A stretch of 64,000 bases of DNA. It comes from Prevotella sp. UBA2725 (GTDB lineage: Bacteria; Bacteroidota; Bacteroidia; Bacteroidales; Bacteroidaceae). This document shows, in pieces, positions 371 to 16,094 of this stretch (positions are counted from its first letter, which is position 1; each line of letters begins with the position of its first letter). Where the stretch lies: positions 17,001 through 81,000 of the forward strand of contig DEKJ01000003.1 in the NCBI GenBank assembly GCA_002353825.1, read 5' to 3'. Both the position numbers and the translations under genes were made by a program. The notes beneath the pieces are model-generated. The model had not been told where the DNA came from. It searched no databases and worked only from the letters and a program-made list of their open reading frames with translations.

Positions 371-443
371 GGCTCGGAATTGGTTCCAAAGAGATTCATT
401 GAGGTTCTGCAGACCTCGTAGTATCAATTTAAATGACATTAAA

Positions 444-779
444 ATGGATATAAACGATTTGAAACAAAAACCTGTGGCAATGATGACAGGAGAGGAACTG
501 AGTTTCCTCATTGACAGCCGTATGGCTACTTGGGCTACTGAGATTGCGAGTCTGAGTCAAAGACGTATCTACTATGGCATTGAAGGCATCGCTCAAATAT
601 TTGGTTGCAGTGTTCCGACAGCCAACCGCATCAAGAAGAGTGGCGTGATAGACGATGCCATCACCCAAATTGATCGTCAGATTGTAATCGATGGCAACCT
701 TGCCCTTGAATTGGCAAAGAAAGTAGGGACCATTAAGGTTAAAGGCGAGAAAACCACGAAAGAGCATGACGTACATTGA
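444..779 (+). CDS. DUF3853 family protein (excisionase-like HTH)
   Basis: KPVAMMTGEEL...YYGIEGIAQIFGCSVPTANRIKKSGVIDDAITQ matches the family typical of Bacteroidota mobile elements; ATG 444 preferred over TTG 399. Confidence 0.85.
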   Translation: MDINDLKQKPVAMMTGEELSFLIDSRMATWATEIASLSQRRIYYGIEGIAQIFGCSVPTANRIKKSGVIDDAITQIDRQIVIDGNLALELAKKVGTIKVKGEKTTKEHDVH

Positions 780-1236
780 TTACATGAATCAGTTCTGGCG
801 CGCTTCTGCTATGGAGTACATGTCCACCAGCGAGGTTGCACTCTACGCTTTCTTAGTGAACGAGTGCAACCAACACCGCTGGAACATGCCAGTGCCATGC
901 TCTACGGTACGGATCTGCGAGATGCTGCACATGTCCAAACAGACACTTTGCACCGCTCGTAAGAATCTTGCCAAGCGTGGACTTATCTCTTTTACTGAAG
1001 GCAAATCACGTCATGTACCGTCTAAATATTCACTACTAATTTGGACGGATAACTTGACGGTAGAGTTGACGGATGGATTGACGGCAAACTTTACCCCTTT
1101 AAAAGATAAAGAGAAAGATAATTATAATAAAAAGGATTCTGTCAAAATTTTAAGCAATGGAAAAGAAACTCACAATCGACGTAGAGGCGTTAAAGAAATC
1201 TCTACTACAGCGTCGCCCTATGAAGGCTCGTTTTAA
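766..1236 (+). CDS. Phage-type replication initiator (winged-helix N-terminus)
   Basis: MTYIDYMNQFW...LYAFLVNECN..W...ICEMLHMSKQTLCTARKNLAKRGLISF, then KDKEKD linker; overlaps a DnaC-like gene. Confidence 0.65.
   Translation: MTYIDYMNQFWRASAMEYMSTSEVALYAFLVNECNQHRWNMPVPCSTVRICEMLHMSKQTLCTARKNLAKRGLISFTEGKSRHVPSKYSLLIWTDNLTVELTDGLTANFTPLKDKEKDNYNKKDSVKILSNGKETHNRRRGVKEISTTASPYEGSF
1042..1084 (+). repeat. Iteron-like T(T/G)GACGG x4, 12-bp period, inside initiator gene
   Basis: TGGACGG 1042; TTGACGG 1054, 1066, 1078; followed by AT-rich 1100-1140. Confidence 0.7.
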
Positions 1237-1822
1237 GTTGCCCATGTCAGAAGACGAGGCGTATGCCTATTTGTTGGCAGCAATGATGGCTGAGGTGGAA
1301 TATCGCCACCGTAGCTTCTGTACTAGCGAGGATATGGAGAATCAACTTCAAGAGATAGCTCATTGGCTTACCTCGTCATCCCCCAAGTTCGGTCTGTTGC
1401 TATGCGGTGGCTGTGGCAATGGCAAAAGCACTATGCTCAGAGCATTCCAACAGTTGCTCAACAACTTGCGTATTCCGAAATCATTCAACGATGGTACATA
1501 CGGAATCCAGATAGTGGATGCGAAATACATTGCATACTTGTGCAAGAACAACTATGAGGCATACCGTAAACTCATCAGTGTAGATATGCTTGGTATCGAT
1601 GATCTTGGCACTGAGCCTTCGGAGGTGATGGATTATGGCAACGTCTATACTCCAGTCATTGACCTGTTGACAAAGCGCTACGAAGAGCAGCTTTTTACCG
1701 TCATCACCACTAACCTCACTCCACAACAAATCCGAGAGCACTACGATGACCGCATCGCAGACCGTCTAAACGAGATGGTGGAGAAAATAGTATTCAAGAA
1801 CGGTACATACCGCAATAATTAA
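1157..1822 (+). CDS. DnaC/IstB-like P-loop ATPase (helicase-loader type)
   Basis: Walker A GGCGNGKS, Walker B LGIDDLGTE, ITTNL and RIADRLNEM motifs. Confidence 0.85.
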   Translation: MEKKLTIDVEALKKSLLQRRPMKARFKLPMSEDEAYAYLLAAMMAEVEYRHRSFCTSEDMENQLQEIAHWLTSSSPKFGLLLCGGCGNGKSTMLRAFQQLLNNLRIPKSFNDGTYGIQIVDAKYIAYLCKNNYEAYRKLISVDMLGIDDLGTEPSEVMDYGNVYTPVIDLLTKRYEEQLFTVITTNLTPQQIREHYDDRIADRLNEMVEKIVFKNGTYRNN

Positions 1823-1855
1823 CTAATTCACAAACTTTTTAAATCTTGTAAAATT

Positions 1856-2398
1856 ATGATTTCAAACATCAAGACCGTGACACTTAGATTGTCACAGAAA
1901 GAATTCAATTTCCTCATGAACGGCGTTAATGCCAAGTTCTTCATGGACATCATGTCCCATCTCACAGCATCGTTTTCTATGGATGAAGACGATACAGATC
2001 CTCAACTCGTGTATGGGCCTACAGCCTTCTTCCATCTCTACGAACTCGCAGAGCGTTGGGAGGTTGCTCCCGAGGATGTGCTCAACATCATGTTCAATCT
2101 GGAGCAGAACGGATTGATAAAGTATTCACTATCCGAGAATGAATTCGCTATCGAGCCATGCATCACAAGTTTCGTCTCAACTGATGATGTGGTGCATAAG
2201 GGGACTAATTGCGACACTCATCTTGATGAACTTTGCTTTGAGATGATGACTAAAAAGCAGATTTTTGAAGCTATCGCTCGTTACGACAGCTTGATCACTC
2301 TTCATTTTCCTATGGTTACCCTCAAAGCATTCTCTCTCAAAAAGGACGGGAATGAGAACACTTACGAGAGCATCAACGGAGTTGTAGTGAATCCCTAA
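1856..2398 (+). CDS. Hypothetical protein of mobile element
   Basis: 180-aa ORF co-oriented, followed by hairpin 2409-2455. Confidence 0.6.
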   Translation: MISNIKTVTLRLSQKEFNFLMNGVNAKFFMDIMSHLTASFSMDEDDTDPQLVYGPTAFFHLYELAERWEVAPEDVLNIMFNLEQNGLIKYSLSENEFAIEPCITSFVSTDDVVHKGTNCDTHLDELCFEMMTKKQIFEAIARYDSLITLHFPMVTLKAFSLKKDGNENTYESINGVVVNP

Positions 2399-2520
2399 CT
2401 GCTAACGGAGAATGGCTGGCTGTCGAGACTCTGCATCAAAGCAATCAGCCATTCTAATTGAGATAAAGATAGGGAAAGGAATGCCACCTAAAGGAGCCTG
2501 AATTGTCGTACTCTCTAAAC

Positions 2521-2607
2521 AAGAAGTGTCAATGTCCGACAATCCGCTTCGCTACTTGCCAGACCGTTTGACCTCTTGCAATACTCGCAGGCTCGCATTG
2601 AGTTGAC
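2521..2607 (+). other. Candidate oriT 1
   Basis: Homologous to 4061-4148 (AAGAA..CAATGTC..ACAA...CTCGCA(G/A)GCTCGCATTG(A/G)GTTGA); each copy lies directly upstream of a mobC. Confidence 0.6.
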
Positions 2608-2646
2608 CAATCCCAGTTATAATTTAACGATAAAACACATCTACAA

Positions 2647-3009
2647 ATGGACAAGATATTAGAACCCAAAGGGCGTAATCCACGTATTACCGTGTGTTAT
2701 ACGCCCGACGAGAACCAGAGGGTTATAGAGATGGCTTCCGCCTGTGGATTGAAGAAAAGCCAGTATATCCATGACACTTCCTTGGGACAGAAGCCAAAGG
2801 TAATGATGAGCAACAAGGAGGCTGATGCCCTGATGTCACTGAAAGCTGCCCGTGGTGAGCTGGTCCTAATTAAGAATGCCCTTCATGGCACTACCCAGGA
2901 ACAGCGTAAGAAGTACTTCCGCAACGAGCAGTTCATGCGCCAATGGATTGAGGGTGTAAACAGCCTTATCCGCAGATTAGTAGAAATAGAAAGTATGTTC
3001 AGAAGATAA
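2647..3009 (+). CDS. mobC: MobC-like relaxosome accessory protein (copy 1)
   Basis: RHH-like N-terminus (RITVCYTPDE...ASACGLKKSQY) directly upstream of relaxase. Confidence 0.75.
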   Translation: MDKILEPKGRNPRITVCYTPDENQRVIEMASACGLKKSQYIHDTSLGQKPKVMMSNKEADALMSLKAARGELVLIKNALHGTTQEQRKKYFRNEQFMRQWIEGVNSLIRRLVEIESMFRR

Positions 3010-3013
3010 TGGT

Positions 3014-3943
3014 ATGATAGCTAAAGCAAGGTCTATATCGCATGGTTCTGCCATGACAAACTATGCCACCAAGCATAATCGTGCAGACATAGTGCTGACA
3101 CGTAATCTTGGCGAGGGACTTACTCCTCTCGCCATGTGGGGAGCAATGGAAACCATCCATCAGAAGTATGAACCGAAATTCAGGCGCAAGCCCGTCACCA
3201 AGCTGACCCTTCGGATGGAGGTTTCCCCATCCCTTGAAGAAACAAAGGGCTGGACACTCAATGACTGGTACGACTATGCGATTCGGTTTCTTGATGAGTT
3301 CAAGAAAGAAGCCCAAGCCAAGGAGGGAAAGAAGCGAGGAAAGAGCAAGTTCAATCTGGACAGAGCACAGATATTTGTATGTCTTCACTTTGATGCGAAG
3401 TCTGGCATTCCTCACCTGCACATCCTCATCAACCGCATTGACCTTGACGGCAATCTGATGAATGACTCCTTCATTGGCGATAGTGTAGTCAAGGCTGCCC
3501 ATGCCATCAACATTGAGCGTGGCTGGGAGTTGCCCGAGGATATTCACAAGGCTCACGAGAAGGAAATAACGGCAGATTGTTACGACATCCTCCGTGGAAT
3601 ACAGAGCTACGACTGGAGTAGTTATAAGCATGGTCTTGAAAGTCGTGGTTACAAAGTCCATGAGCAGCGTGACAAGCAAGGTATCTTGCATGGTTATACC
3701 ATACTTCGTGGCAACTCCCGTTTCAAGTCATCCACTTTGGGTAAGAATTGGCACACTTCAAGTGCAAATGTCAAAGAGAGAGGAAACTCAACATCAAGAA
3801 GAATTGCCGTTTTAATAAAAAATAAGGGAAGAAAAGAAAGGCTTCGCATCACTTTTGAAAATCGGCGATACTCTTTAATATGTCCCCTTTCCCCTAAAGT
3901 TAAGCCCAAAAGAATAAAAAGTAAAGAGATAATAATAGTTTGA
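3014..3943 (+). pseudogene. Relaxase copy 1, probably C-terminally truncated/chimeric after about 3745
   Basis: MIAKARSISHG start, HFDAKSGIPHLHILINRID HUH motif; similarity to copy 2 ends at FKSSTLGK; lacks the GGGGG-GW tail of copy 2. Confidence 0.65.
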
Positions 3944-4060
3944 GCAATAATAAAAGGTGACAAGGGACAATACTTTCTCTTTTCGCCAGCAATACAAATC
4001 TTGATATGTAAAGAGAATTAATCATCATGGTGTACAACCAAACCGATAGCAGTGCTATGC

Positions 4061-4148
4061 AAGAAATACCAATGTCATACAAACGCACTTCGTTTGTCCG
4101 TATGCCAATGGACTTCTTGAACGCTCGCAAGCTCGCATTGGGTTGAAC
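4061..4148 (+). other. Candidate oriT 2
   Basis: Homologous to 2521-2607; upstream of second mobC. Confidence 0.6.
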
Positions 4149-4173
4149 ACTTTTTATAGAAGCAATACTAGGT

Positions 4174-4545
4174 ATGAATAAGAAAAATATAGAAAAGGAG
4201 GCACCGAAATACACGAGCCGCCTGGTAGTAAGGCTTACGCCGCAACTCCATAAGGAGATAGCGGAATATGCAGCCCTTTGCGGACTGACCACAAGCGCAT
4301 ACGCACGCAAGCGGTTGGAGGGCAAATATCCCAAACAACGCTTGACTGACAAAGAAATGAAGGCTTTGAACAGCCTATCGGATGCCAGGGGCGATATACA
4401 AAAATTGTTCGGCTTTCTCAAAGGACGTCCGCTTACGGAACGTGAGAATATTCTCCGCAGCGAAATCTTCATGAAACGATGGAGAACAAGTGCAGAGGTA
4501 ATCTTGAACCGCATGATTGAGATAGAGAAATACTTAACACAATAG
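4174..4545 (+). CDS. mobC: MobC-like relaxosome accessory protein (copy 2)
   Basis: RLVVRLTPQLHKEIAEYAALCGLTTSAYAR; divergent paralog of 2647-3009. Confidence 0.75.
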   Translation: MNKKNIEKEAPKYTSRLVVRLTPQLHKEIAEYAALCGLTTSAYARKRLEGKYPKQRLTDKEMKALNSLSDARGDIQKLFGFLKGRPLTERENILRSEIFMKRWRTSAEVILNRMIEIEKYLTQ

Positions 4546-4559
4546 AACATACGACATAT

Positions 4560-5783
4560 ATGATAGCGAAAGCAAAAGTAATAAGTCATGGCGCAAATGC
4601 CATACGTTACTCAGTAGATAAGGACAAGGCAGAGATTGTTAAGACAAATCTCTTGCCCGATGATATTTCCCCAACGGCAATGTGGGCGAGAATGCTTGTC
4701 TTGCAGAAGAAGTTTGAAGGCAAGTTGAATCGTTATCATCCGCTCAAGCGTAACATGATACGTATCGAGGTTTCCCCAACCTCGGAGGAAACGCGAGGTT
4801 GGACAATGGAGGACTGGCAGAGGTTGGCGAATGACTTTATCCGTGAGTTTGATGCGGTTGACCTTTCAGCCAAGTCGAGGCGCAAGAGTGCAAAGGCTAC
4901 CAATCTCAAAGGCAGCCAATATGTTGTTGCGCTTCATCGTGACAGCAAGAGTGGCATTATGCACCTTCATATTGATGCGAACCGCATAGATATGAGGGGC
5001 AACGTGAATGATGCCCATTATATCTACGAGAGAGCGATGGCTGCTGCCGCCAAGGTTGGGCAACAGCGTGGATGGAAAGATGCCCAAGAGGTAAGCCGCC
5101 AAAATAAGGAAGTGATAACCAATGATTGTCTTTCCGTTTTGACTAAGATGCCGTACTTTGATTGGGGACTATACACAAAATGCCTCACGCAAATGGGATA
5201 TGATGTCAAACTGCGATCCGACAACAAAGGACAAGTGCGTGGATATGCCATCAAGCGAGGCAACTCCATTTATAAGTCCTCGGAACTTGGCAAAGGTCGT
5301 TGTCTGATGCCCTCAAAGATTGAAGGTACTTGGGCAAAACTGCATCATCAAGAATTGGAGAAACCAGTTTCAACTCCAACAAAGAATACCCAACAGCCAA
5401 AGATTATGACTGTTCCCAAACCTATGCCTACTGCGGACAACACTCCAAAGATACGTCACTTCGACTTTTATACGGACGAGTTTCATCATTATCCTGTTGA
5501 TATTCCTCAGAATTGTCTGGATGTCATCGACAAGAATATAGCTTTGGATGCCGACAATGTGTTTGCCAAGATAGGTGATGTGCAGAAGACCGCCATTCTT
5601 CTCTTTGCTGAATACATTGATGCTGCCACAACCATTGCCGCCCAGTCTGGCGGTGGCGGAGGTGGTGCTACCTCAGGTTGGAGGCGTGACAAGGACGAGG
5701 ATGAACTGTCATGGGCGCATCGCTGCGCTATGATGGCTAATTGCCTGTGCAGACCTCGCAAGAAGCAAGGGTATGGCAGATAA
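4560..5783 (+). CDS. Relaxase/mobilization nuclease (full length)
   Basis: MIAKAKVISHG, ALHRDSKSGIMHLHIDANRID HUH motif, C-terminal GGGGGATSGWRRDKDEDE typical of Bacteroidota Mob proteins. Confidence 0.9.
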   Translation: MIAKAKVISHGANAIRYSVDKDKAEIVKTNLLPDDISPTAMWARMLVLQKKFEGKLNRYHPLKRNMIRIEVSPTSEETRGWTMEDWQRLANDFIREFDAVDLSAKSRRKSAKATNLKGSQYVVALHRDSKSGIMHLHIDANRIDMRGNVNDAHYIYERAMAAAAKVGQQRGWKDAQEVSRQNKEVITNDCLSVLTKMPYFDWGLYTKCLTQMGYDVKLRSDNKGQVRGYAIKRGNSIYKSSELGKGRCLMPSKIEGTWAKLHHQELEKPVSTPTKNTQQPKIMTVPKPMPTADNTPKIRHFDFYTDEFHHYPVDIPQNCLDVIDKNIALDADNVFAKIGDVQKTAILLFAEYIDAATTIAAQSGGGGGGATSGWRRDKDEDELSWAHRCAMMANCLCRPRKKQGYGR

Positions 5784-5812
5784 CCGAATGTTCAACCAAC
5801 AACATTGATACT

Positions 5813-6358
5813 ATGCCGATAGGTAAAAGCAAAATCTCGGATATGGATTTCGGATCTTTCGAGAATACGATTGACAAGAATATCGAAGCGAACAAGGCTT
5901 CGGACAAGTTTGACCAACAGCTTCAAGCCTACAAGGATGCTGGCAATAGTTTGACTTCGGCAAAAAGTGGCCTTGAAATGGCTACTGCTTCCATGCATGA
6001 AGCAAAAGACAAATTAAGTGAAGCCTCAGATAAAGCGAATACTGTCACCAAAGCTATTGAAGCCTACATTGGCAAAGTAAAAGACATAACTGTCAAAGCT
6101 AAGGTTGATGATGCCGATATGGAACAGGCAATCAACAACAGGAACAAACTCATTGGCGATGAGTCCAAACTTCTTGAAAACCACCGAAAAGCGAATAAGG
6201 AAATCCTTACTCGCCATTTCTATGACATGTCTAATATGATGTCAAGAAATGAAGGTGTGTGGTTGTCAAATGGTTGGGTGAAGACTTTGCTTTGGATATT
6301 TATTCCATCTATTATTTATACTATAGTGTCTGTCGTTTATTTTATTTGCCATCTTTAA
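5813..6358 (+). CDS. Coiled-coil protein with C-terminal TM helix (mob-associated)
   Basis: Heptad-rich body, hydrophobic C-terminus TLLWIFIPSIIYTIVSVVYFI; start uncertain. Confidence 0.65.
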   Translation: MPIGKSKISDMDFGSFENTIDKNIEANKASDKFDQQLQAYKDAGNSLTSAKSGLEMATASMHEAKDKLSEASDKANTVTKAIEAYIGKVKDITVKAKVDDADMEQAINNRNKLIGDESKLLENHRKANKEILTRHFYDMSNMMSRNEGVWLSNGWVKTLLWIFIPSIIYTIVSVVYFICHL

Positions 6359-6467
6359 GCTACAATATATTAGCTTATTATTTATATCTTATTAACTATT
6401 GTTCATGCAGTTATTTTCCGTAATGGATTATCTTAATATATAAAGCGCAAATTCATTTGTACTAAAC

Positions 6468-8132
6468 ATGGATATAGAAGAACTGATAGAACGAATAAAA
6501 GAAGGAGACAATGTAGCTCTGGAAACATTATATAAAACATACGCTCCGATGATGAGAAATGTATGTGTCAACATAACCAATGAGGACGAGGACATAGTGA
6601 ATGACCTCGTCCAAATGGCGTTTATTCGTGCTTATTATTCTCTCTTCCAACTCCGAGATACTTCAAAGTTTGGAGAATGGGTGGCTACAATTACTAAGAA
6701 TGTTGCTTTGAAACATCTGGCACAGAAACGAAAGATGCGATTTGTTCCCTTTTCAAGTAAGATGGAAGAAGAATTGGAGATAGGTTGTACCTTATCCTCC
6801 GATTCGCTATTGGCAGAAAAGGAAATACATGAGTTGATCGACCAATTGCCTAAAGGATATGGGCGAGTGTTTAGAATGTCTGTTATAGAAGGTTATTCGC
6901 ATCAAGAAATAGCCGAAAAATTGGGCATTGAGCCGCATAGTTCTTCTTCTCAATTGTCAAGGGCAAAGGCTTTGTTGCGTAAGATGATTAACAGAAGGGG
7001 GATGGGGATTGTTATATTTGTATTGGTATGCACTCCTCTTGGCATATATTTGCTCAAAGACAGAGGTAAGGAGGAAATACAAAAAATCAATATAGCCAGT
7101 GAAAAGAAAAATATAATTAGGCAAGTAGAAAACAAAGCCCCTAATAATGCAGCGAATGTGGCTTCTGCAAATTCAGTTGCAGAAATACACTGTAATCAAT
7201 ATGGTGTATCATCCATTATTCCTGAGGAAATTCCATCAAATGATAGCATATATACTCCAAAGGATTCCATACAACATAAGTTGTTGGTTGTAGAAAATAA
7301 TGATAGCATCCTGCTAGATACATGCAAACAACCTTGCATAGAGACAGAGCATTACCTTGCAGACAATGAGCAAACAAGCAAAAAGCATCAATGGCAGTTG
7401 CTTGCAGCGGGTTCTCTTGGCTCAGCTTTGGCTCAGAATGCTTACAAGCTGTTTGTGGGTAATGCTAGTAGTGATTTTGATGGGCCTCAACCTTCTGGCC
7501 CTGAAACATACTCAACTTGGGAGGGTTATTATCATTATCTGCAACAGAATGCGCATGATGATATGTCGAAGAAAGACAAAGCTCTGATGGATATTGCCCA
7601 AAATAATAAGGGGAAAATCGAGGAACATGAACACCACGACAAGCCAGTTACCTTTGGTCTCTCGGTAACAAAATCATTGGGGAATAATTGGAACTTGGAA
7701 ACAGGTTTGCAGTATTCTCTGTTAAAGTCCGACTTCACGTTAGGCGAAGGTGCATATTACATCAATCGTAACCAAAAGGTGCATTATTTGGGAATACCTT
7801 TGCGAGTGTCGTATAAATGGCTTGATGTCAAGAACTGGTCAGTTTATTCTTCGCTTGGCGGTGCTTTGCATATTCCTATATACGGTAAAACCAGCGAAAG
7901 GTATATTGTAGGAAATACTACACCATATATGGATAATTGGCATTTCACACCTTCGCTGCAATGGAGCATTGGCACAAGCATTGGAGTGCAATATAAGTTC
8001 GCTCCTATGTGGGGTGTCTATATTGAACCTTCATTCAACTGGTATGTGCCAAACGGCAGCTCTATCCATACAATTTGGACTGAGCATCCGTTCTCTTTCA
8101 CAATACCTTTCGGCGTTAGGTTTACATGGTAA
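6468..8132 (+). CDS. ECF sigma-70 factor fused via TM helix and linker to an outer-membrane beta-barrel
   Basis: Sigma2 (DLVQMAFIRAY...FGEWVATITKN), sigma4 (GYSHQEIAEKLGI...SQLSRAK), TM GIVIFVLVCTPLGIYLL, barrel HYLGIPLRVSY...GVRFTW. Confidence 0.9.
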   Translation: MDIEELIERIKEGDNVALETLYKTYAPMMRNVCVNITNEDEDIVNDLVQMAFIRAYYSLFQLRDTSKFGEWVATITKNVALKHLAQKRKMRFVPFSSKMEEELEIGCTLSSDSLLAEKEIHELIDQLPKGYGRVFRMSVIEGYSHQEIAEKLGIEPHSSSSQLSRAKALLRKMINRRGMGIVIFVLVCTPLGIYLLKDRGKEEIQKINIASEKKNIIRQVENKAPNNAANVASANSVAEIHCNQYGVSSIIPEEIPSNDSIYTPKDSIQHKLLVVENNDSILLDTCKQPCIETEHYLADNEQTSKKHQWQLLAAGSLGSALAQNAYKLFVGNASSDFDGPQPSGPETYSTWEGYYHYLQQNAHDDMSKKDKALMDIAQNNKGKIEEHEHHDKPVTFGLSVTKSLGNNWNLETGLQYSLLKSDFTLGEGAYYINRNQKVHYLGIPLRVSYKWLDVKNWSVYSSLGGALHIPIYGKTSERYIVGNTTPYMDNWHFTPSLQWSIGTSIGVQYKFAPMWGVYIEPSFNWYVPNGSSIHTIWTEHPFSFTIPFGVRFTW

Positions 8133-8205
8133 TGCTCTCGTCATGCAGTCTTTTGAACTTTTGTCGCCTCTTATTGATAGAAGCACAAAAGTTTCTGAAA
8201 ACGAA

Positions 8206-9276
8206 ATGTACAAGACAACAGATTACCTGCGCAATGGGGTGCTATACCTCAACAATATTCTTCGCCCTCAACATAAGAAACTGAGCACGTTGATGATTTA
8301 TACCACGACAAAATGCCAATCGCGCTGCAAGCATTGCTCCATTTGGCAAAAGCCAGAAGAACATTTGTCGTTGCGTGACATACAGAAGATTATGGCAAGC
8401 CGCTGCGTTACCAAAAATACGGTTGTGGGCTTGGAAGGTGGAGAGTTTATTCTTCATCCTGAATCCACAGCCATCATGGAGTGGTTCATGCGCCACCACC
8501 CCAACTACACCCTGCTATCTAATTGCCTCAATCCACAAAAGATCATTGACGCTGTGCGTAGATACAATCCCCGGCATTTGTATGTGTCGTTGGATGGCGA
8601 CAGAGATACATACAAGGAAATGAGAGGATGCAATGGCCATGACAAGGTGATAGAGGTGGTTGAGGCCTTGAAAGATGAGGTTCCCATTTCTTTGATGTTC
8701 TGCCTCTCTCCATGGAACACCTTCAAGGATATGGACTATGTGATTGGAGTGGCGAGGAAATATAAGGTAGATGTACGCATCGGCATTTATGGCACGATGG
8801 ACTTCTTCAACACCACGGCTGATTTGCTTCGTACAGATAAGACAAACTACTTGCAGAGTATTCCAGACAATATTCATGAGACGGAAGAAAATTTTGATTT
8901 TGTAGCATTGTATGAGGAGTGGAGAAACGGCCATCTGAAACTGCAGTGTCAAAGCATATTCAGCGAACTGGTTATTCATTCTAATGGGGATGTGCCGTTG
9001 TGCCAAAACTTGGGTGTGAAACTTGGCAACATACACAAGCACTCTTTGGATGAGATATTCAATTCTCGCCAAACAGCCCATGTGCAATGCCAATATTCCA
9101 AAAACTGCAACGCCTGCTGGATTAACTTCCATCGTAAGTATGATATCATCTTGTTGCGCAACTTCGAGAAAGTCGTCCCCAAGAAGATGATAGAATGGTT
9201 CTACGGCAAATATCAATGGACAGGCAATGAGAATGACACCTACAAACAATACATGAATCGGATTATCAGAAGATGA
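8206..9276 (+). CDS. Radical SAM protein with SPASM/twitch-like C-terminus
   Basis: CxxxCxxC (CQSRCKHC), GGEFILHP, GDVPLCQ..LGNI, CNACW; start 8206 preferred over 7969. Confidence 0.9.
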   Translation: MYKTTDYLRNGVLYLNNILRPQHKKLSTLMIYTTTKCQSRCKHCSIWQKPEEHLSLRDIQKIMASRCVTKNTVVGLEGGEFILHPESTAIMEWFMRHHPNYTLLSNCLNPQKIIDAVRRYNPRHLYVSLDGDRDTYKEMRGCNGHDKVIEVVEALKDEVPISLMFCLSPWNTFKDMDYVIGVARKYKVDVRIGIYGTMDFFNTTADLLRTDKTNYLQSIPDNIHETEENFDFVALYEEWRNGHLKLQCQSIFSELVIHSNGDVPLCQNLGVKLGNIHKHSLDEIFNSRQTAHVQCQYSKNCNACWINFHRKYDIILLRNFEKVVPKKMIEWFYGKYQWTGNENDTYKQYMNRIIRR

Positions 9277-10313
9277 GATACACAAAGCAATTAATCGACC
9301 GCTACAAGCGTTTCCGAAATACAAGTCTTTTAAGACACGACTATCATGCTAGGTATGCTTTCGTCGGTATAGGCAATCATAGCATGAACAATCTTTATCC
9401 AGTGCTTGCCTTCCTGCATGTGCCCTTGAAGTATGTTTGCTGTAAGTCTGCTGACAAACTGCCTTTAATCGAGCGAGCTTATGCTGGTGTGCATGCCACT
9501 ACTTCCTTGCAGGAAATACTGGCAGACGAAGAAGTGAAAGGCGTTTTTGTCTCAACAGCTCCACAAGCGCATTTCGCAATAGCCACAGAAGTATTGAAGA
9601 GCGGCAAGGCACTGTTTATCGAAAAGCCTCCATGCCAAAGTTTGGAGGAATTGGCGCAACTGTTGGATTTGCAAAAGGCGCATGACGCTATTGTGGAGGT
9701 GGGGTTGCAGAAGCGGAACTCGCCTATCATGCGTCTATTGAAAAAGGAGTTGAAAAAGAGCAAAGCCTCTGCATGCTATAACCTTAAATATCTTACAGGT
9801 GCCTATCCGGAAGGCGATGCCTTACTCGATCTCTTTATCCACCCATTAGATTGCATGACCTATCTGTTTGGCGAAGCTCAAGTGAAATATGCGGAAAGTG
9901 CGGGATGCCATACCTTGATGCTCATTCTTGAACATCGTTGTGCCACAGGCATGCTGGAACTGTCAACTGGCTATTCTTGGAATGACGCAAAAGAACATTG
10001 GACGATCAACACAGTTAGAGGCATCTACGAGATGGACCAATTCGACAGTTTGACCTTTCAGCCCAAGCCCCAAATCATAATGGGCATCCCAATGGAAAAA
10101 ATGTTTCCGTGCGGAAAGACTACCGTCAGTCTGCTTGAAAGAAATAACTTTGTTCCTTTGCAGGAGAATAACCAAATTGTGTCCCAAGGCTATTACGATT
10201 CGATAAAGGGTTTTGTTGATGCCGTAGAGGGGAAGAATATGCGAGTGCCATCTTCATTGGAACACCTAACTCACACCTACTCTTTGATAGAGAATATACG
10301 AACATTAATATAA
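9273..10313 (+). CDS. Gfo/Idh/MocA family oxidoreductase
   Basis: FVGIGNH Rossmann motif, HFAIATEVLKSGKALFIEKPP, DLFIHPLD. Confidence 0.9.
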   Translation: MRYTKQLIDRYKRFRNTSLLRHDYHARYAFVGIGNHSMNNLYPVLAFLHVPLKYVCCKSADKLPLIERAYAGVHATTSLQEILADEEVKGVFVSTAPQAHFAIATEVLKSGKALFIEKPPCQSLEELAQLLDLQKAHDAIVEVGLQKRNSPIMRLLKKELKKSKASACYNLKYLTGAYPEGDALLDLFIHPLDCMTYLFGEAQVKYAESAGCHTLMLILEHRCATGMLELSTGYSWNDAKEHWTINTVRGIYEMDQFDSLTFQPKPQIIMGIPMEKMFPCGKTTVSLLERNNFVPLQENNQIVSQGYYDSIKGFVDAVEGKNMRVPSSLEHLTHTYSLIENIRTLI

Positions 10314-10325
10314 AATGGAGGATTT

Positions 10326-10838
10326 ATGAAAACAACATTATTCGGATGTGTCTTATCAGCACTCATGTTGGCCTCTTGCTCGTCTGAACAAAATGTAACA
10401 GAGCCTGTGAGATTGAGCGACATCGTTAATACTGGGTGTACAAGATCTTTCTCTGCAAAAGAGAGTCGACCTGAGTATTACAGAAGTGAAATGGAAAAGA
10501 AGCCCCAAGTGTCTATTTCCGTTGATAAGAATGGGGTGGCGACCTTCAACTTCACAGACCTTGAAGCTAATTGCATTGTGAATGAATTCCGTCCGTCTGT
10601 AAAAGCTAATGACGGAGAAATCGCCATAGTGTTGATACCGTATACTCCAGACCCGACAGTGGAAGCCGATTGTTATTGCAGATACGATGTAAGTTTCAAA
10701 CTCAGCAATGTGGTATCAGGCAAATACTGCATAAAAATTTATGAGTCGGATTATTATGGCAAATACGACACCGTACATCCATCTTATGAAGGTTTAGTTT
10801 TATTTGCGCCAAACAAGTCTTTTGAATTTGACCTTTAA
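10326..10838 (+). CDS. Lipoprotein of unknown function
   Basis: Lipobox LASC; NTGC, EANC and DCYCRYD cysteine motifs. Confidence 0.8.
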   Translation: MKTTLFGCVLSALMLASCSSEQNVTEPVRLSDIVNTGCTRSFSAKESRPEYYRSEMEKKPQVSISVDKNGVATFNFTDLEANCIVNEFRPSVKANDGEIAIVLIPYTPDPTVEADCYCRYDVSFKLSNVVSGKYCIKIYESDYYGKYDTVHPSYEGLVLFAPNKSFEFDL

Positions 10839-10844
10839 CGATTA

Positions 10845-10883
10845 AAGTCCCATCCGCATATATACTATATGTCGATGGGACTT
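10845..10883 (+). terminator. Intrinsic terminator of cargo operon
   Basis: aagtcccatc...gatgggactt stem. Confidence 0.7.
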
Positions 10884-10925
10884 GTTGTTTTGATTGTATG
10901 GTTGCTGAGTATCACAGAGCATCAT

Positions 10926-11024
10926 TGCGTAAACACACCTAACTCAAACAGTTTGTTTACGCATTGTTTACGCAATTACACAAAAAAAGCAGCTACGAAA
11001 TTCGTAACTGCTTCATTTTCAGTG
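10926..11024. other. Candidate att end: three TGCGTAAACA motifs plus hairpin adjacent to tRNA 3' end
   Basis: TGCGTAAACA 10926-10935 (+), 10954-10963 and 10965-10974 (-); aagcagctacgaa/ttcgtaactgctt hairpin 10987-11013. Confidence 0.55.
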
Positions 11025-11098
11025 TGGACCAGCTAGGGCTTGAACCTAGGACCTCCAGATTATGAGTCTGTTGCTCTAACCAACTGAGCTACAAGTCC
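11025..11098 (-). tRNA. tRNA with CAT anticodon, probably tRNA-Ile2 (lysidine), otherwise elongator Met
   Basis: GGACTTGTAGCTCAGTTGGTTAGAGCAACAGACTCATAATCTGGAGGTCCTAGGTTCAAGCCCTAGCTGGTCCA cloverleaf. Confidence 0.92.
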
Positions 11099-11230
11099 AA
11101 TCGTTGTTAGATGGTGCCACGAAGGCAATATCTAATCGGTTGTGCAAAGGTAGGCATTTTTTCTTGAAGGAACAAATTTTTGGCAAGATTTTCATAGAGT
11201 TTTTAATGGGTAAGAGTGAGATATCATCGC

Positions 11231-11316
11231 GCCTCGTATGTGTCGCGTTTCCGCCTCGTATGTGACGCGTTTCCGCCTCGTATGCGTCGCGTTTCCGCCT
11301 CATATGTGACGCGATT
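11231..11316. repeat. 22-bp tandem repeat x4 (gcctcgtatgtgacgcgtttcc)
   Basis: Units at 11231, 11253, 11275, 11297; related to 35330-35416. Confidence 0.9.
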
Positions 11317-11350
11317 GCGCTACTGCTATCGGTAAGTTTCCGCTACGGCC

Positions 11351-11388
11351 AAAAAAGAAAGGGAATAAGCCGATGAAAGCTTATTCCC
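11351..11388 (-). terminator. Terminator of sdh operon
   Basis: gggaataagc/gcttattccc stem with T-tract on minus strand. Confidence 0.75.
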
Positions 11389-11479
11389 GAGATTCCACCC
11401 GGCGGCTTATCGTGGCGATATGCTGCCTTAGATGACGTCTGTGCGAATGCTAAATAATGTGCGTTCGACTAATGTGCGA

Positions 11480-12235
11480 TTAGTCGGCGAGCTTAGCCTT
11501 GATGAACTCACGGTTGAGGCGAGCGATGTTGGCGATCGACTCGTTCTTCGGGCACTCAGCCTCGCAGGCGCGGGTGTTGGTGCAGTTACCGAAGCCAAGC
11601 TCCTCCATCTTAGCCACCATGTTCTTCACGCGGCGAGCAGCCTCTACGCGGCCCTGGGGCAGGAGAGCGAATTGGCTGACCTTGGAAGAGACGAAGAGCA
11701 TGGCTGAGCCGTTCTTACAAGCAGCGACACAAGCGCCGCAGCCGATGCAGGTAGCGCAGTCCATAGCCTCGTCGGCAGCATCCTTAGAGATAAGGATAGC
11801 GTTGGCATCCTGAGCCTGACCAGTACGCACGCTGGTGTAGCCACCGGCAGCGATGATCTTGTCGAATGCGGAGCGGTCTACCATGCAGTCCTTGATGATG
11901 GGGAATGCAGCAGAACGCCAGGGCTCCACGGTGATGACATCTCCGTCGTGGAAGCGGCGCATGTAGAGCTGGCAGGTTGTAGCACCCTGTGCAGGTCCGT
12001 GGGGATGACCGTTGATATAGAGCGAGCACATACCGCAGATACCCTCGCGGCAGTCGTGGTCGAAGACGAAAGGCTCGTTGCCACCCTCGATGAGCTGTTC
12101 GTTCAGGATGTCGAGCATCTCGAGGAACGAAGTGTCGCCAGGGATGTCCTTCATCTCAAAGGTGTCGAAGTGACCCTCTGCTTTAGGTCCATTCTGACGC
12201 CATACCTTCAGCGTGAAACTAATATTTGTATCCAT
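11480..12235 (-). CDS. sdhB: Succinate dehydrogenase/fumarate reductase Fe-S subunit
   Basis: [32 protein letters not shown]. Confidence 0.97.
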
Positions 12236-12311
12236 GTTTTTGTATTCTGAATTTAATATGTTGTTTATTAGCGCTCCTCACCCCCTCTACGGGAGGGGGC
12301 TGGGGGAGGCT

Positions 12312-14276
12312 TTAGCTCTTGTAGTTACGCGTCTGCACCTTGATGTACTGGTAGTTGAGGTCTTCCTTGTAGAGCACTGGAGCCTGGTCTTCGCCCTTGT
12401 ACTCCCAGCAAGCGACGTACATGTAGTGCTCGTCGTCACGCTTAGCCTCACCATCCTCAGTCTGGCTCTCCTCGCGGAAGTGGCCACCGCAGCTCTCGTT
12501 ACGCTCGAGAGCATCGTAAGCGATGAGCTCACCCATGAGGATGAAGTCGCGGAGGTGGATAGCCTTGTCGAGCTCGACGTTGAGGCCTTCCTTAGAACCC
12601 GGCACACGCACGCAGGTGTTGAACTGCTCGCGCACGTCCTTCAGCATAGCGAGCGCCTTCTTCAGGCCTTCCTCGTTACGGGCCATACCGACGTAGTTCC
12701 ACATGATGTTGTAGAGCTCCTTGTGGATAGAGTCGACACTCTTCAGCTTCGACTTGTCGGTCTGCTTGTTCTGGATGTCCATGATACGGTCGATCTCAGC
12801 CTGCACACCCTTCTCAGCCTCTACGAACTCAGGAGCGTCTGTGCTCGGCTTCTTCACCTGGATCTGGTCGGAGAGATAGTTCTGCATGGTGTAAGGGATG
12901 ACGAAGTAACCGTCGGACAGACCCTGCATCAGTGCGGAAGCACCGAGGCGGTTAGCACCGTGGTCGGAGAAGTTGCACTCACCGAGGGCGAAGAGACCCT
13001 TGATGTTTGTCTGCAGCTCGTAGTTGACCCACAGGCCACCCATGGTATAGTGAATGGCGGGGAAGATCATCATCGGGTTCTCGTGCGGATCAACGTCCGT
13101 GATCTCCTGATACATATCGAAGAGGTTACCGTAACGCTGGTCAACGACATCGCGGCCGAGACGCTGGAAAGCCTCAGAGAAGTCGAGGAATACAGCCAGG
13201 CCAGTGTTGTTCACGCCATAGCCCTTGTCGGTACGCTCCTTAGCAGCACGTGAAGCCACGTCACGAGGCACGAGGTTACCGAAGGCAGGATAACGGCGCT
13301 CGAGGTAGTAGTCGCGGTCCTCCTCAGGAATGTCGCGGCCCTTGAGCTCACCACGCTGCAGCTTCTTGGCATCCTCCAACTTCTTTGGTACCCAGATACG
13401 GCCATCGTTACGGAGAGACTCTGACATCAGAGTCAGCTTCGACTGCTTGTCGCCGTGTACAGGGATACAAGTCGGGTGGATCTGCACGAAGCAGGGGTTA
13501 GCGAACCAAGCGCCCTTACGGTAAGCCTGGATAGCAGCTGTACAGTTACAGCCCATAGCGTTGGTAGAGAGGAAGTAAGTGTTGCCGTAACCACCGGTAG
13601 CGAGACATACAGCGTGAGCGGAGTAGCGCTCGAGCTTGCCTGTTACGAGGTTCTTGGCGATGACGCCACGGCAGCGACCGTCGATGATGACGATATCCTC
13701 GATCTCCGTACGTGTGTGGAGCTCCACAGTGCCGTGATGCACCTCTTTCATCAGCGAAGAGTAAGCACCGAGCAGCAGCTGCTGACCTGTCTGACCCTTG
13801 GCGTAGAAAGTACGGCTCACCTGCACGCCACCGAAAGAACGGTTAGCCAGCATGCCGCCATACTCACGAGCGAAAGGCACGCCCTGAGCCACGCACTGGT
13901 CAATGATGTTGGCACTGACCTCAGCCAGACGATAGACGTTGGCCTCACGTGCACGGTAGTCACCGCCCTTGATGGTATCGTAGAACAGACGGTAGACGGC
14001 ATCACCATCGTTCTGGTAGTTCTTAGCTGCATTGATACCGCCCTGAGCTGCGATAGAGTGAGCACGGCGCGGAGAGTCCTGGATGCAGAAGTTGATTACG
14101 TGGAAGCCCATCTCGCCGAGAGAAGCAGCAGCGCTGGCACCAGCCAGACCTGTACCTACGACGATGATGTCAAGCTTACGCTTGTTGGCGGGGTTCACCA
14201 GTTTCTGATGAGCTTTATAGTTGGTCCATTTTTCGGCCAGGGGGCCTTCTGGAATTCTTGAATCTATCTGAGTCAT
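12312..14276 (-). CDS. sdhA: Succinate dehydrogenase/fumarate reductase flavoprotein subunit
   Basis: [42 protein letters not shown]. Confidence 0.97.
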
Positions 14277-14319
14277 TTTGTTTAATGATTTAAAGAGTTG
14301 TGAGCTTATAGGTTCACTT

Positions 14320-14347
14320 TAACACCTAACACCTAACAGCTATCACC
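14320..14347. repeat. Heptamer repeat TA(A/T)CA(C/G)C x4
   Basis: taacacc taacacc taacagc tatcacc between sdhC stop and sdhA start. Confidence 0.6.
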
Positions 14348-15025
14348 TTATTTGAAGCTGGGTGCGAAGCCGAGCCAGAAAGAGAGCACGAGGAATACGA
14401 AGACAGCCATGAGGATCGAGACATAGATGATGCCGATCGTCTGCCAGCGCTTCAACCAGATCTTACCGCTGATACCGAGCGTCTGCATAGCGCTCCAGAA
14501 ACCGTGGCTCAGATGGAACCAGATGGCGCACATCCACACGATGTAGAGGATAGAGAAGACGGGGTTGGCGAAAGTCTGCTGGATCCAGCCGAAACCGTCA
14601 GTAGGAGCCGGAGTAGTGGGGCAGCCAGCGAGCTCAGCGAACATCATGTGAGCCCAGAAGTTGTAGAGGTGCAGGATGAGGCCGAGGAGGATGATGATAC
14701 CCAGGACGAGCATGTTCTGCGAAGCCCAGGACACCTCAGGACGGCGGCTTGTCACCTCATAGCGCTGCGGGCCACGAGCGCGGCGGTTCTGCGCGGTAAG
14801 GATAAACGCGTAGACGATGTGGCACACAGCCAGGAAGGCAAGTGCCAGCGTTCCTACTACAGCATACCAGTTGCTTCCCAAGAAAGCGCAGATCGTGTTG
14901 TACGCATTCCCAGAGAAGAATGCGGCAACATTCATGCAGCAGTGGAAAGTCAGGAAAAGGATGAGGCAGATGCCAGTGACAGACATCACCACTTTTCTAC
15001 CAATCGGAGAATTGATTAACCACAT
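14348..15025 (-). CDS. sdhC: Succinate dehydrogenase/fumarate reductase cytochrome b subunit
   Basis: SPIGRKVVMSVTG, five TM segments with His ligands, HLSHGFWSAMQTLG. Confidence 0.95.
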   Translation of the reverse strand: MWLINSPIGRKVVMSVTGICLILFLTFHCCMNVAAFFSGNAYNTICAFLGSNWYAVVGTLALAFLAVCHIVYAFILTAQNRRARGPQRYEVTSRRPEVSWASQNMLVLGIIILLGLILHLYNFWAHMMFAELAGCPTTPAPTDGFGWIQQTFANPVFSILYIVWMCAIWFHLSHGFWSAMQTLGISGKIWLKRWQTIGIIYVSILMAVFVFLVLSFWLGFAPSFK

Positions 15026-15237
15026 AAATGATTGATTTAAATATTAATGTTATGTTTTTGTATATATATCATTTTTGGGCTTGCACATACCACACATTAG
15101 GTAGCTGTAGCGCGTTTCCGCTGCAAAAATACTATTATTTTGGCGATTGTACAAATTTACCCCTAAAATTTCCACATCATTAATGCATAATTACATAACA
15201 TTTGACATCTTCTGCCGAGATCGTGGTCGATAATAAC

Positions 15238-15290
15238 CGTTATCGCATCTCCATTTCATCGTTATCGCATCTCCATTCCATCGTAATCGC
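15238..15290. repeat. 22-bp tandem repeat x2.4 (cgttatcgcatctccatt(t/c)cat)
   Basis: Units at 15238, 15260 and partial 15282. Confidence 0.8.
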
Positions 15291-15321
15291 GGTGTGATTT
15301 AAGTGGAATCGCAATCCCGAA

Positions 15322-16094
15322 ATTCACAATTCACAGTTCACAGTTCACATTAAGGTCGTTCTCACACGGATAAAATGTACGGTTAGTGGATTACAATGTC
15401 AGATGGAAAGATCAACCACAGATGATAGCAATGAAAAACAATAAACTGCAAAAGTAACAAAGTAACATATTAACAGGTAACATTAAGGTCGTTCCCATGA
15501 TGACGGAAGATGCCGAAGTTTAATAAAGATAAATATTGTTCTTATATTATAATAATATTAACAATATATTATTAATATAATAATATATATAGTAAAGAAT
15601 GTTAATTCGAAATCGACTCTCGGTCTTCTCCCGGCTGGCGAGAAAGTATGGAAGGACCTTAATGTGAACTGTGAACTGTGAACGCTGCGCGGCTGCTCCG
15701 GAACTGCATTCGGAGTATGGAACGACCTTAATGTTACCTGTTAATATGTTAACATGTTACTTTTGTAGGGTGGGCAGTTCACCGTAGGGGCGGGATTTGG
15801 CAATGGGGACCGTTCTAAGCGGTACATAGATTGGTCGATCTGTCTTTGTCCCGAAGCTATTTGAGAGACATAGATAATTTTTCTCATAGAAAATTTGGTT
15901 TATTCTGATCCTTTTTCGTAAATTTGCAACTGCATAGGTTCTTCTTGATGCTTGGAGACTTTAAGTCGTTTGGCGAGCCGGTGAGCGTGGGGCGTGAGCT
16001 GCATAATGCCGACTGGATGACGTATGATGAGGCGGTGGAGAGATATTCACAGTTCACAATTCACAGTTCACATTAAGGTCATTCTCACACGGAT
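15322..16094. repeat. Complex of direct and inverted repeats sharing core ACATTAAGGTC
   Basis: A: 15322-15371 (+), 15649-15682 (-), 16045-16094 (+); B: 15450-15495 (+), 15719-15764 (-); very AT-rich 15520-15605. Confidence 0.85.

Follow-up and report, generated by a model that had tools for sequence, protein, structure and literature searches.

A 64,000-nucleotide stretch of the Prevotella sp. UBA2725 genome (contig DEKJ01000003.1; hereafter, the window) contains a cassette of four genes encoding, in this order, an extracytoplasmic function (ECF) sigma factor fused to a predicted outer-membrane barrel (the fusion), a radical S-adenosylmethionine (SAM) enzyme with a SPASM domain, a NAD(P)-dependent oxidoreductase of the Gfo/Idh/MocA family (the dehydrogenase) and a lipoprotein (lipoprotein A), closed by one intrinsic terminator (table 1). 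By taking into account its gene content, its conservation and the distribution of a promoter motif, the region is probably a self-contained regulon of an ECF sigma factor, which a mobilizable element of gut Bacteroidales carries as cargo at its tRNA-Met end and which is dedicated to sensor-driven redox tailoring.

Table 1. The cassette, its control signals and the surrounding mobilizable element (positions in the window).
Feature	Position	Strand	Description or basis
Mobilizable-element backbone, 5' of the cassette	399..6358	+	Pfam labels on identical loci L001-L005
ECF-type promoter P1	6404..6443	+	conserved motif upstream of the fusion gene
Sigma-barrel fusion gene	6468..8132	+	554 aa; Pfam, TIGR02937
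Promoter P2, second motif copy	8142..8181	+	between the fusion and radical SAM genes
Radical SAM/SPASM gene	8206..9276	+	356 aa; Pfam
Gfo/Idh/MocA NAD(P)-dependent oxidoreductase gene	9273..10313	+	346 aa; Pfam
Lipoprotein A gene	10326..10838	+	170 aa; lipobox
Intrinsic terminator	10845..10892	+	interrupted 17-bp hairpin 10845-10883, then UUGUUGUUUUG
tRNA-Met (CAT), integration site of the cassette-bearing element	11024..11098	-	tRNA call, Rfam

The arrangement of four co-oriented open reading frames (ORFs) ahead of a single terminator, as given in an initial annotation of this DNA, agrees with the positions in table 1, and the overlap of the radical SAM stop and the dehydrogenase start that it reported was verified in the sequence as an ATGA at 9273-9276. 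Its description of the gaps as short or overlapping holds for this overlap and for the 12 nt that separate the dehydrogenase and lipoprotein A genes, but not as the mark of a tight operon, because the 73-nt gap between the fusion and radical SAM genes holds an internal promoter (P2). Thus, the unit is a two-promoter operon rather than a simple tight one. The terminator hairpin with its U-rich tract has an energy of -25 kcal/mol (z = -6.2 against shuffled sequence). A simple consensus scan for sigma-70-type promoters and terminators returned nothing above chance, missing both the ECF-type promoters and this terminator, the latter because its apical part exceeds the loop limit of the scan. No riboswitch or other RNA element was found by Rfam in the gaps, the sole match being the tRNA. 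The G+C content is 0.38 at positions 6001-8000, where the fusion gene lies, compared with 0.44-0.47 in the adjacent 2-kb windows; across the fumarate reductase genes it is 0.56.

In assembled bovine-gut metatranscriptomes, single contigs span 6312-10832 (run X5, 4572 nt) and 6250-11032 (run X1), and contigs of run X6 start at 6312 and end at 10852. The ends of the cassette contigs at 10832-10852 fall by the terminator, and the set fits one transcription unit that extends from P1 to the terminator. Since a contig starting at 6312 is preceded by unrelated sequence, the cassette sits on a different backbone in those samples.

The fusion, the conserved core and its promoter motif

Residues 1-175 of the fusion comprise ECF sigma regions 2 and 4, with Pfam scores above the cut-offs for Sigma70_r2 (38.3 bits, cut-off 24), Sigma70_r4_2 (51.4, cut-off 25.7) and Sigma70_ECF (28.5, cut-off 21.1), and a TIGR02937 score of 80.8 (cut-off 42.9). 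With sigma2 and sigma4 only, and from these family-model scores, the protein is a member of the ECF (group 4) sigma-70 factors. Its sequence matches in the PDB (SigH, RpoE and SigW) are restricted to the sigma part (residues 4-175). Directly after it, a single hydrophobic membrane helix (RRGMGIVIFVLVCTPLGIYLLKD, approximately residues 178-197) has RR on its inner side, and nothing resembling an anti-sigma domain can be discerned between this helix and sigma region 4. A poorly conserved linker of approximately 190 residues leads to the predicted barrel domain (approximately residues 389-554), in which residues 394-517 match OMP_b-brl_2 (38.9 bits, cut-off 27) and which ends with ...RFTW, the last residue being aromatic. 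Judged from the sequence alone, a sigma domain, one helix and a predicted C-terminal barrel form the same architecture as in Dma3. In Dma proteins, the cytoplasmic N-terminus holds an ECF sigma factor and is followed by one helix across the inner membrane and by a barrel in the outer membrane; in Dma3 (BT_2778), which is found mainly in Bacteroides and Prevotella, the sigma factor is fused at the N-terminus (Pardue 2024, PMC10927553). The fusion is therefore not new as an architecture. The fusion frame appears broken in a few of the related loci (L016, 6171-7923; L073, 1689-3380; L020, approx. 6200-7925), where all its parts are nevertheless detectable by tblastn; the ORF is cut down to 161 aa in L016 and to 272 aa in L073. 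Such frames may reflect pseudogenes or faulty assembly.

A scan of one genome per species identified 490 stretches encoding a relative of the radical SAM enzyme, and the best 80 loci were examined. The dehydrogenase gene was found directly 3' of the radical SAM gene in 78 of the 78 loci with enough sequence, and the fusion gene upstream and on the same strand in 58 of 68. Protein identity reaches down to 37-45% for the fusion and to 45-50% for the dehydrogenase. The loci from GTDB are titled Prevotella, Segatella, Bacteroides, Muribaculaceae, Paraprevotella and similar, in line with the restriction of such fusions to Bacteroidota. Mobilization genes were not detected in the 80 loci, and the flanks of the two that were inspected (L040 and L082) resemble ordinary chromosomal genes. 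The values of 37-50% identity, the many genera and the unrelated flanks indicate genuine conservation and not mere copies of a mobile element. Six records titled Lachnospiraceae, Duodenibacillus, Roseburia, Wujia and Opitutae (L021, L031, L036, L037, L046 and L067) contain near-identical Bacteroidales-type loci, L021 closely matching a locus of Bacteroides faecis (L023); most likely these are mis-binned contigs of metagenome-assembled genomes rather than instances of cross-phylum transfer.

Gene-neighbourhood analysis across many species thus supports the coupling of the sigma sensor to the radical SAM and Gfo/Idh/MocA enzymes that the initial annotation had proposed, and the genes do co-occur elsewhere, in the 78 of 78 and 58 of 68 loci just given. 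The unit of four genes that it had envisaged gives way to a smaller one: the conserved core consists of three genes (fusion, radical SAM and dehydrogenase) accompanied by a variable exported protein, and even a profile based on diverged members of its family found the Cys-containing lipoprotein A in no more than 8 of the 80 genome loci.

Alignment of the DNA upstream of the fusion genes revealed, 50-75 nt ahead of the start codon, a single conserved block within otherwise diverged DNA, namely (C/T)(A/G)TGCAGTC(T/A)TT, a 16-nt spacer and then GTATC or GGACT plus an AT-rich stretch. Two boxes at a fixed spacing are the typical layout of ECF sigma promoters. In the window, P1 consists of a -35-like TGCAGTT (6406-6412), a 16-nt spacer and a -10-like TATCTTAAT (6429-6437), and lies approximately 60 nt before the fusion start; P2 has TGCAGTC (8144-8150), again a 16-nt spacer, and CCTCTTATT (8167-8175). 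A degenerate form of the motif matches the 64-kb window twice (at 6405 and 8143), with 0.02 matches expected by chance. Of 58 related loci, 56 have the core motif no more than 130 nt ahead of the fusion gene, and of the 64 loci that contain a fusion, 57 have it no more than 110 nt ahead of the radical SAM gene; five of the seven remaining ones have it approximately 135 nt upstream of the radical SAM gene. Of the nine loci that lack the fusion, one has the motif. In rumen lineages, it also precedes the gene of an alternative lipoprotein (lipoprotein B, see below). The recognition helix of sigma region 4 (IEPHSSSSQLSRAK) is nearly invariant, as is the -35-like element. These patterns suggest that the motif is the fusion's own promoter, present in two copies, of which P1 would serve autoregulation and P2 the enzyme genes. 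The self-regulation put forward in the initial annotation is backed by this conserved ECF-type promoter ahead of both the fusion gene and the enzyme genes.

The same data bear on the possibility that the genes are chance or hitch-hiking neighbours on a mobile element, with no functional coupling and with the motif repeated for another reason. The first three genes are very similar across many copies of one element, which could mimic conservation. However, the chromosomal loci come from many genera, with proteins of 37-50% identity and unrelated flanks, the position and the spacing of the motif are kept while the surrounding DNA has diverged, and the motif is missing where the fusion is missing. 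Synteny and the distribution of the motif already contradict an origin by chance, which we regard as very improbable.

Exchangeable enzyme outputs and exported partners

The gene next to BT_2778 in Bacteroides thetaiotaomicron, BT_2779, encodes a class I SAM-dependent methyltransferase (supplementary tables of PMC13088901), and the two genes are co-induced in dma1 and dma2 mutants (PMC13088901). The BT_2778 locus contains neither a radical SAM nor a Gfo/Idh/MocA gene. Protein searches and a cluster look-up meant to name the window fusion as BT_2778 gave only close relatives without names, so that the link is an indirect one, through the supplementary tables and the promoter scan described next. 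A literature search on the genes neighbouring BT_2778 returned nothing relevant, and according to a follow-up study of 2026 the role of Dma3 is still to be determined (PMC13088901).

When metagenome contigs were scanned for a single promoter variant, TGCAGTCTTT-N10-14-GTATCTATA, 120 loci were obtained. Among the 107 matches with a downstream ORF, 86 precede a methyltransferase gene, 15 a fusion gene and one a radical SAM gene, and 82 of the 120 loci combine a fusion with a class I SAM methyltransferase in the gene order of BT_2778-2779. The best matches of this methyltransferase, all weak, are UbiG, TehB and TPMT. The fusions encoded in the methyltransferase loci share 45-53% identity with that of the window, to which they are at least as close as the rumen fusions found beside radical SAM genes. 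From the shared promoter and this degree of identity, the window fusion belongs to one sigma-barrel family with interchangeable outputs, and the enzyme output varies between loci because the same promoter mostly drives a methyltransferase gene in metagenomes. Fusion, radical SAM, dehydrogenase and methyltransferase genes occur together, with three copies of the motif, in one of the 120 metagenome loci (L151) and in one genome locus (L032). In two other metagenome loci (L173 and L215), the motif precedes a gene for a 345-356-aa protein that has no Pfam match (MESLDLTSYQKYN...), which in L173 adjoins the radical SAM, dehydrogenase and fusion genes in a different gene order; this protein may be a further output of the family.

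The resemblance to Dma3 includes the N-terminal ECF sigma factor, the inner-membrane helix and the C-terminal outer-membrane barrel, the occurrence in Bacteroides/Prevotella-type bacteria and the co-regulated gene of a cytoplasmic enzyme that follows. The two systems differ in that the output in the window is a radical SAM enzyme with a Gfo/Idh/MocA dehydrogenase (and a lipoprotein) instead of a methyltransferase, and in that the cassette sits on a mobilizable element. For Dma3, published work gives no regulon, promoter or phenotype (PMC10927553, PMC13088901). The novelty lies in a candidate for the promoter, in a regulon predicted for the sensor, in an enzyme output that is modular and in the uncharacterized radical SAM/dehydrogenase pair.

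Lipoprotein A has the lipobox LAS|C with the lipidated residue at Cys18, and matches no Pfam or NCBIfam model. Besides Cys18, C38, C83, C116 and C118 are invariant among homologues of 21-50% identity, within which a DCxCxYD motif includes a CxC. It belongs to a small family, which accounts for 89 representative clusters in a set of 1.84 billion proteins. The AlphaFold2 model, with a predicted local distance difference test (pLDDT) score of 91.3, shows a compact all-beta domain with one helix; despite this confident model, assignment to a known fold was rejected, no significant match being found in the PDB. Identity with NigD was likewise discarded, since Pfam gave no match and the Foldseek alignment to the NigD-like structure 3qwn was not significant (E 0.14, template modelling (TM) score 0.26). 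A diverged lipoprotein A is found in the same four-gene order in L091. In L096, it is found in a locus made of fusion, lipoprotein and methyltransferase genes, without the radical SAM/dehydrogenase pair, where the motif precedes both the fusion and the methyltransferase genes. A distant homologue in L093 follows a CotH kinase gene, and no lipoprotein A was found in the 120 loci of the metagenome motif scan; these two results weaken the notion of a constant association between lipoprotein A and the fusion.

Lipoprotein B, of approximately 185 aa, lies between the fusion and radical SAM genes in 24 of the 80 genome loci, those of the rumen type. It is unrelated to lipoprotein A, as a profile-profile comparison aligned the signal peptides only. 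Other loci encode other secreted proteins, for example a C25 peptidase and an S74 chaperone-domain protein with a type IX sorting tail. Lipoprotein A is an accessory exported component of the unit.

The radical SAM/dehydrogenase pair

For the radical SAM gene, starts at 7969 (the first of the ORF) and at ATG 8143 (chosen by gene callers) compete with ATG 8206, which gives the 356-aa product. The last is preferred because homologues of approximately 355 aa cover 94% of the longer form and because ATG 8143 falls within the motif. The protein matches Radical_SAM (48.3 bits, cut-off 29.5) and SPASM (37.1, cut-off 21.5; model positions 1-67 of 67). The CX3CX2C cluster motif (C37/C41/C44) is invariant, as are seven further Cys residues (C67, C166, C248, C266, C295, C301 and C304), and the order C295-x5-C301-x2-C304 deviates from the canonical SPASM CX2CX5CX3C. 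The cluster motif and the Cys-rich C-terminal domain place the enzyme in the radical SAM superfamily, among the members with a SPASM domain. No NCBIfam model reached its cut-off, the best being TIGR03961 (PTO1314; 65.5 bits against 306), and TIGR04133 (radical SAM with lipoprotein) scored 25.9 against 425. Assignment to a named family (TIGR04133, PTO1314, anaerobic sulfatase-maturating enzyme, SkfB, AlbA or BtrN-like) was rejected, with scores far below the cut-offs. The sole match in the PDB by sequence is SkfB (4e-7). In the AlphaFold2 model, which is of moderate quality (pLDDT 64), the core is good and the C-terminal domain poor; its Foldseek neighbours (SuiB, BlsE, SkfB, MoaA and CteB) are generic SPASM/twitch enzymes with TM scores of approximately 0.4, so that no specific structural relative was accepted.

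The dehydrogenase matches GFO_IDH_MocA (PF01408; 56.4 bits, cut-off 24). The GxGxxx nucleotide-binding motif, the EKP motif (IEKPP) and D-x3-H (GD..D..xHP.D) are kept in 76 homologues, and with this Rossmann, EKP and D-x3-H pattern the protein is a Gfo/Idh/MocA enzyme. No equivalog model reaches its cut-off, and the weak best matches are inositol and sugar dehydrogenases. Neither enzyme has a signal peptide, and both are cytoplasmic. Because no locus separates their genes, not even the nine without a fusion, the radical SAM enzyme and the dehydrogenase probably act on one substrate. The favoured substrate is a small molecule of the carbohydrate, cyclitol or lipid head-group type, which is the weakest part of the account. 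The modification of sugars or small molecules, as well as the role in envelope stress or surface modification, that the initial annotation had brought forward may hold, and are to be read as conditional.

That a radical SAM enzyme can work in an obligate pair with an NAD(P)-dependent oxidoreductase is known from the AprD4/AprD3 couple of apramycin biosynthesis, in which a radical SAM diol dehydratase and an NADPH-dependent reductase act on a sugar (PMC5461906). The sugar-acting twitch/SPASM enzyme BlsE is among the closest fold neighbours found here. Unlike AprD4/AprD3 and BlsE, which belong to antibiotic clusters, the pair of the window is part of a sigma regulon in gut Bacteroidales, and the likeness does not extend to a specific sequence relationship.

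Anaerobic sulfatase-maturating enzymes and sactisynthases modify proteins or peptides before export. On this model, the main rival to the tailoring of a small molecule, the radical SAM/SPASM enzyme would be a maturase of the co-encoded exported proteins (lipoproteins A and B, and the secreted neighbours), with the dehydrogenase finishing or supporting the modification. The SPASM domain, the sequence match to the thioether-forming SkfB and the presence of SuiB, SkfB and CteB among the top fold neighbours speak for it, as do the four invariant Cys residues of lipoprotein A, CxC included, and the repeated position of the pair beside genes for lipoproteins A or B, a C25 peptidase or the S74 chaperone/type IX sorting-tail protein. 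However, no exported family is common to all loci, lipoproteins A and B being mutually unrelated and each limited to its own subset, and lipoprotein A also occurs in L096 without a radical SAM gene and near the CotH kinase. The radical SAM enzyme has no N-terminal extension for recognition of a peptide leader, its cluster motif beginning at residue 37, and the 73-nt and 12-nt gaps are too small for a precursor peptide gene. In addition, partners of the Gfo/Idh/MocA family typically belong to sugar or cyclitol chemistry. By weighing these points, a maturase function is considered unlikely.

The mobile carrier and the proposed signalling path

The backbone upstream of the cassette includes a DUF3853 gene, small ORFs, a gene for a 181-aa membrane-anchored protein (5813-6358) and two consecutive pairs of a NikA-like (MobC-type) gene and a relaxase gene (2647-3943 and 4174-5783). 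The first relaxase has 309 aa and the second 407 aa; L004 and L006 carry the second pair only. The element thus looks composite or partly duplicated, because some related contigs carry only the second NikA-like/relaxase pair. The window begins inside the element, so that its left end and the tyrosine integrase, located beyond the window's left edge, are visible only in related contigs (L001-L005). Copies of the element share sequence up to approximately position 11067, in the 3' part of tRNA-Met, and then diverge. The identical radical SAM protein occurs in 161 indexed blocks of a public assembly collection, and in the contigs that were read the order of the four genes is always the same; elements with an identical radical SAM protein have at least three different host contexts on the right flank. 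With an integrase, a relaxase and its accessory protein, insertion at tRNA-Met and varied flanks, this is a mobilizable integrative element of the NBU-like kind, and the transferability suggested in the initial annotation is backed by the position of the cassette at its right end. From that first reading, then, the coupling, the self-regulation and the mobility are largely borne out, and the size of the conserved unit is corrected to three genes and a variable exported protein.

Several features of the junction and of other carriers were also recorded. An 11-bp direct repeat (TTGTTTACGCA, two copies, 10953-10974) lies near the right end of the element. At that point, and before tRNA-Met, L002 (12830-18300), L003, L006 and L007 contain a second island in tandem, which encodes a KAP NTPase, RloB and an AAA_21 ATPase and has the repeats TTTACGCA. 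Just outside the element, between tRNA-Met and the gene of the fumarate reductase iron-sulfur subunit, a 22-bp tandem repeat (CGCCTCGTATGTGACGCGTTTC, 4.1 copies, 88% matches) spans 11230-11320. In L023 (Bacteroides faecis MAJ27, 1546-15477), a fusion of 64-69% identity lies beside the radical SAM and dehydrogenase genes, which are followed by three co-oriented genes for secreted proteins (the C25 peptidase, the S74 chaperone/type IX sorting-tail protein and an unknown one). In a protein search with the L023 fusion, each of the top 120 matches has 97% identity or more to it, pointing to a second mobile carrier that has spread widely; the genes upstream of that cassette give the impression of being transposon-like. 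In the Segatella copri HDD05 chromosome (L019), an array of ten tRNA genes (5142-5971), one of them called as tRNA-SeC by ARAGORN, lies just upstream of the cassette, and insertion-sequence-type transposase genes lie downstream of it.

A cassette travelling as cargo of a mobilizable element would be explained if it were an inducible detoxification or resistance device, in which the barrel senses an exogenous antimicrobial, dietary or host compound and the cytoplasmic enzymes inactivate it. The cargo position on a widespread tRNA-integrating element, attested by the 161 assembly blocks, agrees with this reading, and so do the interchangeable outputs of a tailoring or detoxifying type, including the methyltransferase with its weak likeness to UbiG, TehB and TPMT, and the fact that all enzymes are cytoplasmic, with no transporter, glycosyltransferase or flippase encoded. 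Against it, no similarity to known resistance enzymes was found, the core looks chromosomal in most species, among housekeeping genes (as inspected in L040 and L082), and nothing points to the ligand of the barrel. Such a device is, on balance, quite unlikely. A role in anti-phage defence was rejected, as the PADLOC models found no defence system in the cassette, the only hit, to pVip, being weak (23 bits) and of a generic radical SAM kind.

The preferred reading, a sensor-driven regulon for redox tailoring, can be put as follows. The fusion would be a one-polypeptide trans-envelope sensor, whose sigma factor is tethered, through the helix and the linker of approximately 190 residues, to the outer-membrane barrel. 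A signal at the outer membrane or in the periplasm would cause the sigma domain to be released or activated, in either case most likely through regulated proteolysis, as proposed for Dma1. The sigma domain would then direct RNA polymerase to the two copies of its own promoter: P1, for transcription of the fusion gene, that is positive autoregulation, and P2, for the radical SAM, dehydrogenase and lipoprotein genes. Transcription from P1 may also read through into these genes, as no terminator precedes the one at 10845. The enzyme pair would most likely modify a small molecule by redox tailoring in two steps, one of them radical-mediated and the other an NAD(P)-dependent reaction that oxidizes or reduces a hydroxyl or keto group, and the lipoprotein would be an exported accessory partner. 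Family-wide, the sensor and the promoter would be constant and the output exchangeable, consisting of radical SAM enzyme and dehydrogenase, of methyltransferase, or of all three.

Known systems offer partial parallels for this scheme. As in Dma1/Das1 (BT_4721/BT_4720), a trans-envelope barrel sensor would control an ECF sigma factor, and a small lipoprotein gene, there nigD2 (BT_4719), is part of the locus and of the regulon. In that system, however, sigma factor and sensor are separate proteins, with the N-terminal 40 residues of Dma1 holding Das1, and the output is vesiculation through NigD1, whereas lipoprotein A is not a NigD protein. In ECF41 and ECF42 (PMC7826278), the sigma factor is controlled by a domain of the same polypeptide and has an autoregulated promoter, as proposed here, but the extensions are soluble and cytoplasmic, while that of the fusion would cross the inner membrane and end in an outer-membrane barrel.

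Several points weigh against this scheme. Recognition of the motif by the fused sigma domain is deduced from sequence patterns, and another factor could bind it. The topology of the fusion and its beta-barrel are predicted from the Pfam match, the hydrophobic helix and analogy, and the likeness to Dma3 is one of published architecture, of gene order and of the methyltransferase-locus fusions rather than of an alignment with the BT_2778 sequence. Deletion of dma3 in B. thetaiotaomicron gave no visible phenotype (PMC10927553). The nine loci that keep the enzyme pair without the fusion indicate that the pair can be regulated otherwise. As to the substrate class, the structural neighbours of the radical SAM enzyme mix the peptide-modifying SkfB, SuiB and CteB with BlsE and MoaA. 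Finally, the metatranscriptome contigs are assembled and strandless, and carry-over of DNA is possible.

With these points taken into account, the region still represents a first predicted target set for a Dma3-type sensor, and it supplies a candidate cognate promoter and a minimal regulon, so that the function of Dma3 becomes directly testable. Dma proteins, which connect the outer membrane to transcription in a Bacteroidota-specific manner, were described only in 2024. A broader proposal, tentative and rather doubtful at this stage, is that Dma3-type fusions are one-protein switches in which a fixed cognate promoter is combined with interchangeable pathways for tailoring small molecules, and that the radical SAM/dehydrogenase pair makes or destroys an undescribed metabolite or envelope modification of Prevotella-type gut bacteria. 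If this is true, a sensor and enzyme unit carried on mobilizable elements would be a horizontally transferable, inducible adaptive trait. The widespread and uncharacterized pair, with relatives in the 490 stretches, is a well-delimited target for enzyme discovery in Prevotella/Segatella, bacteria that are abundant in the gut and for which few regulons have been characterized.

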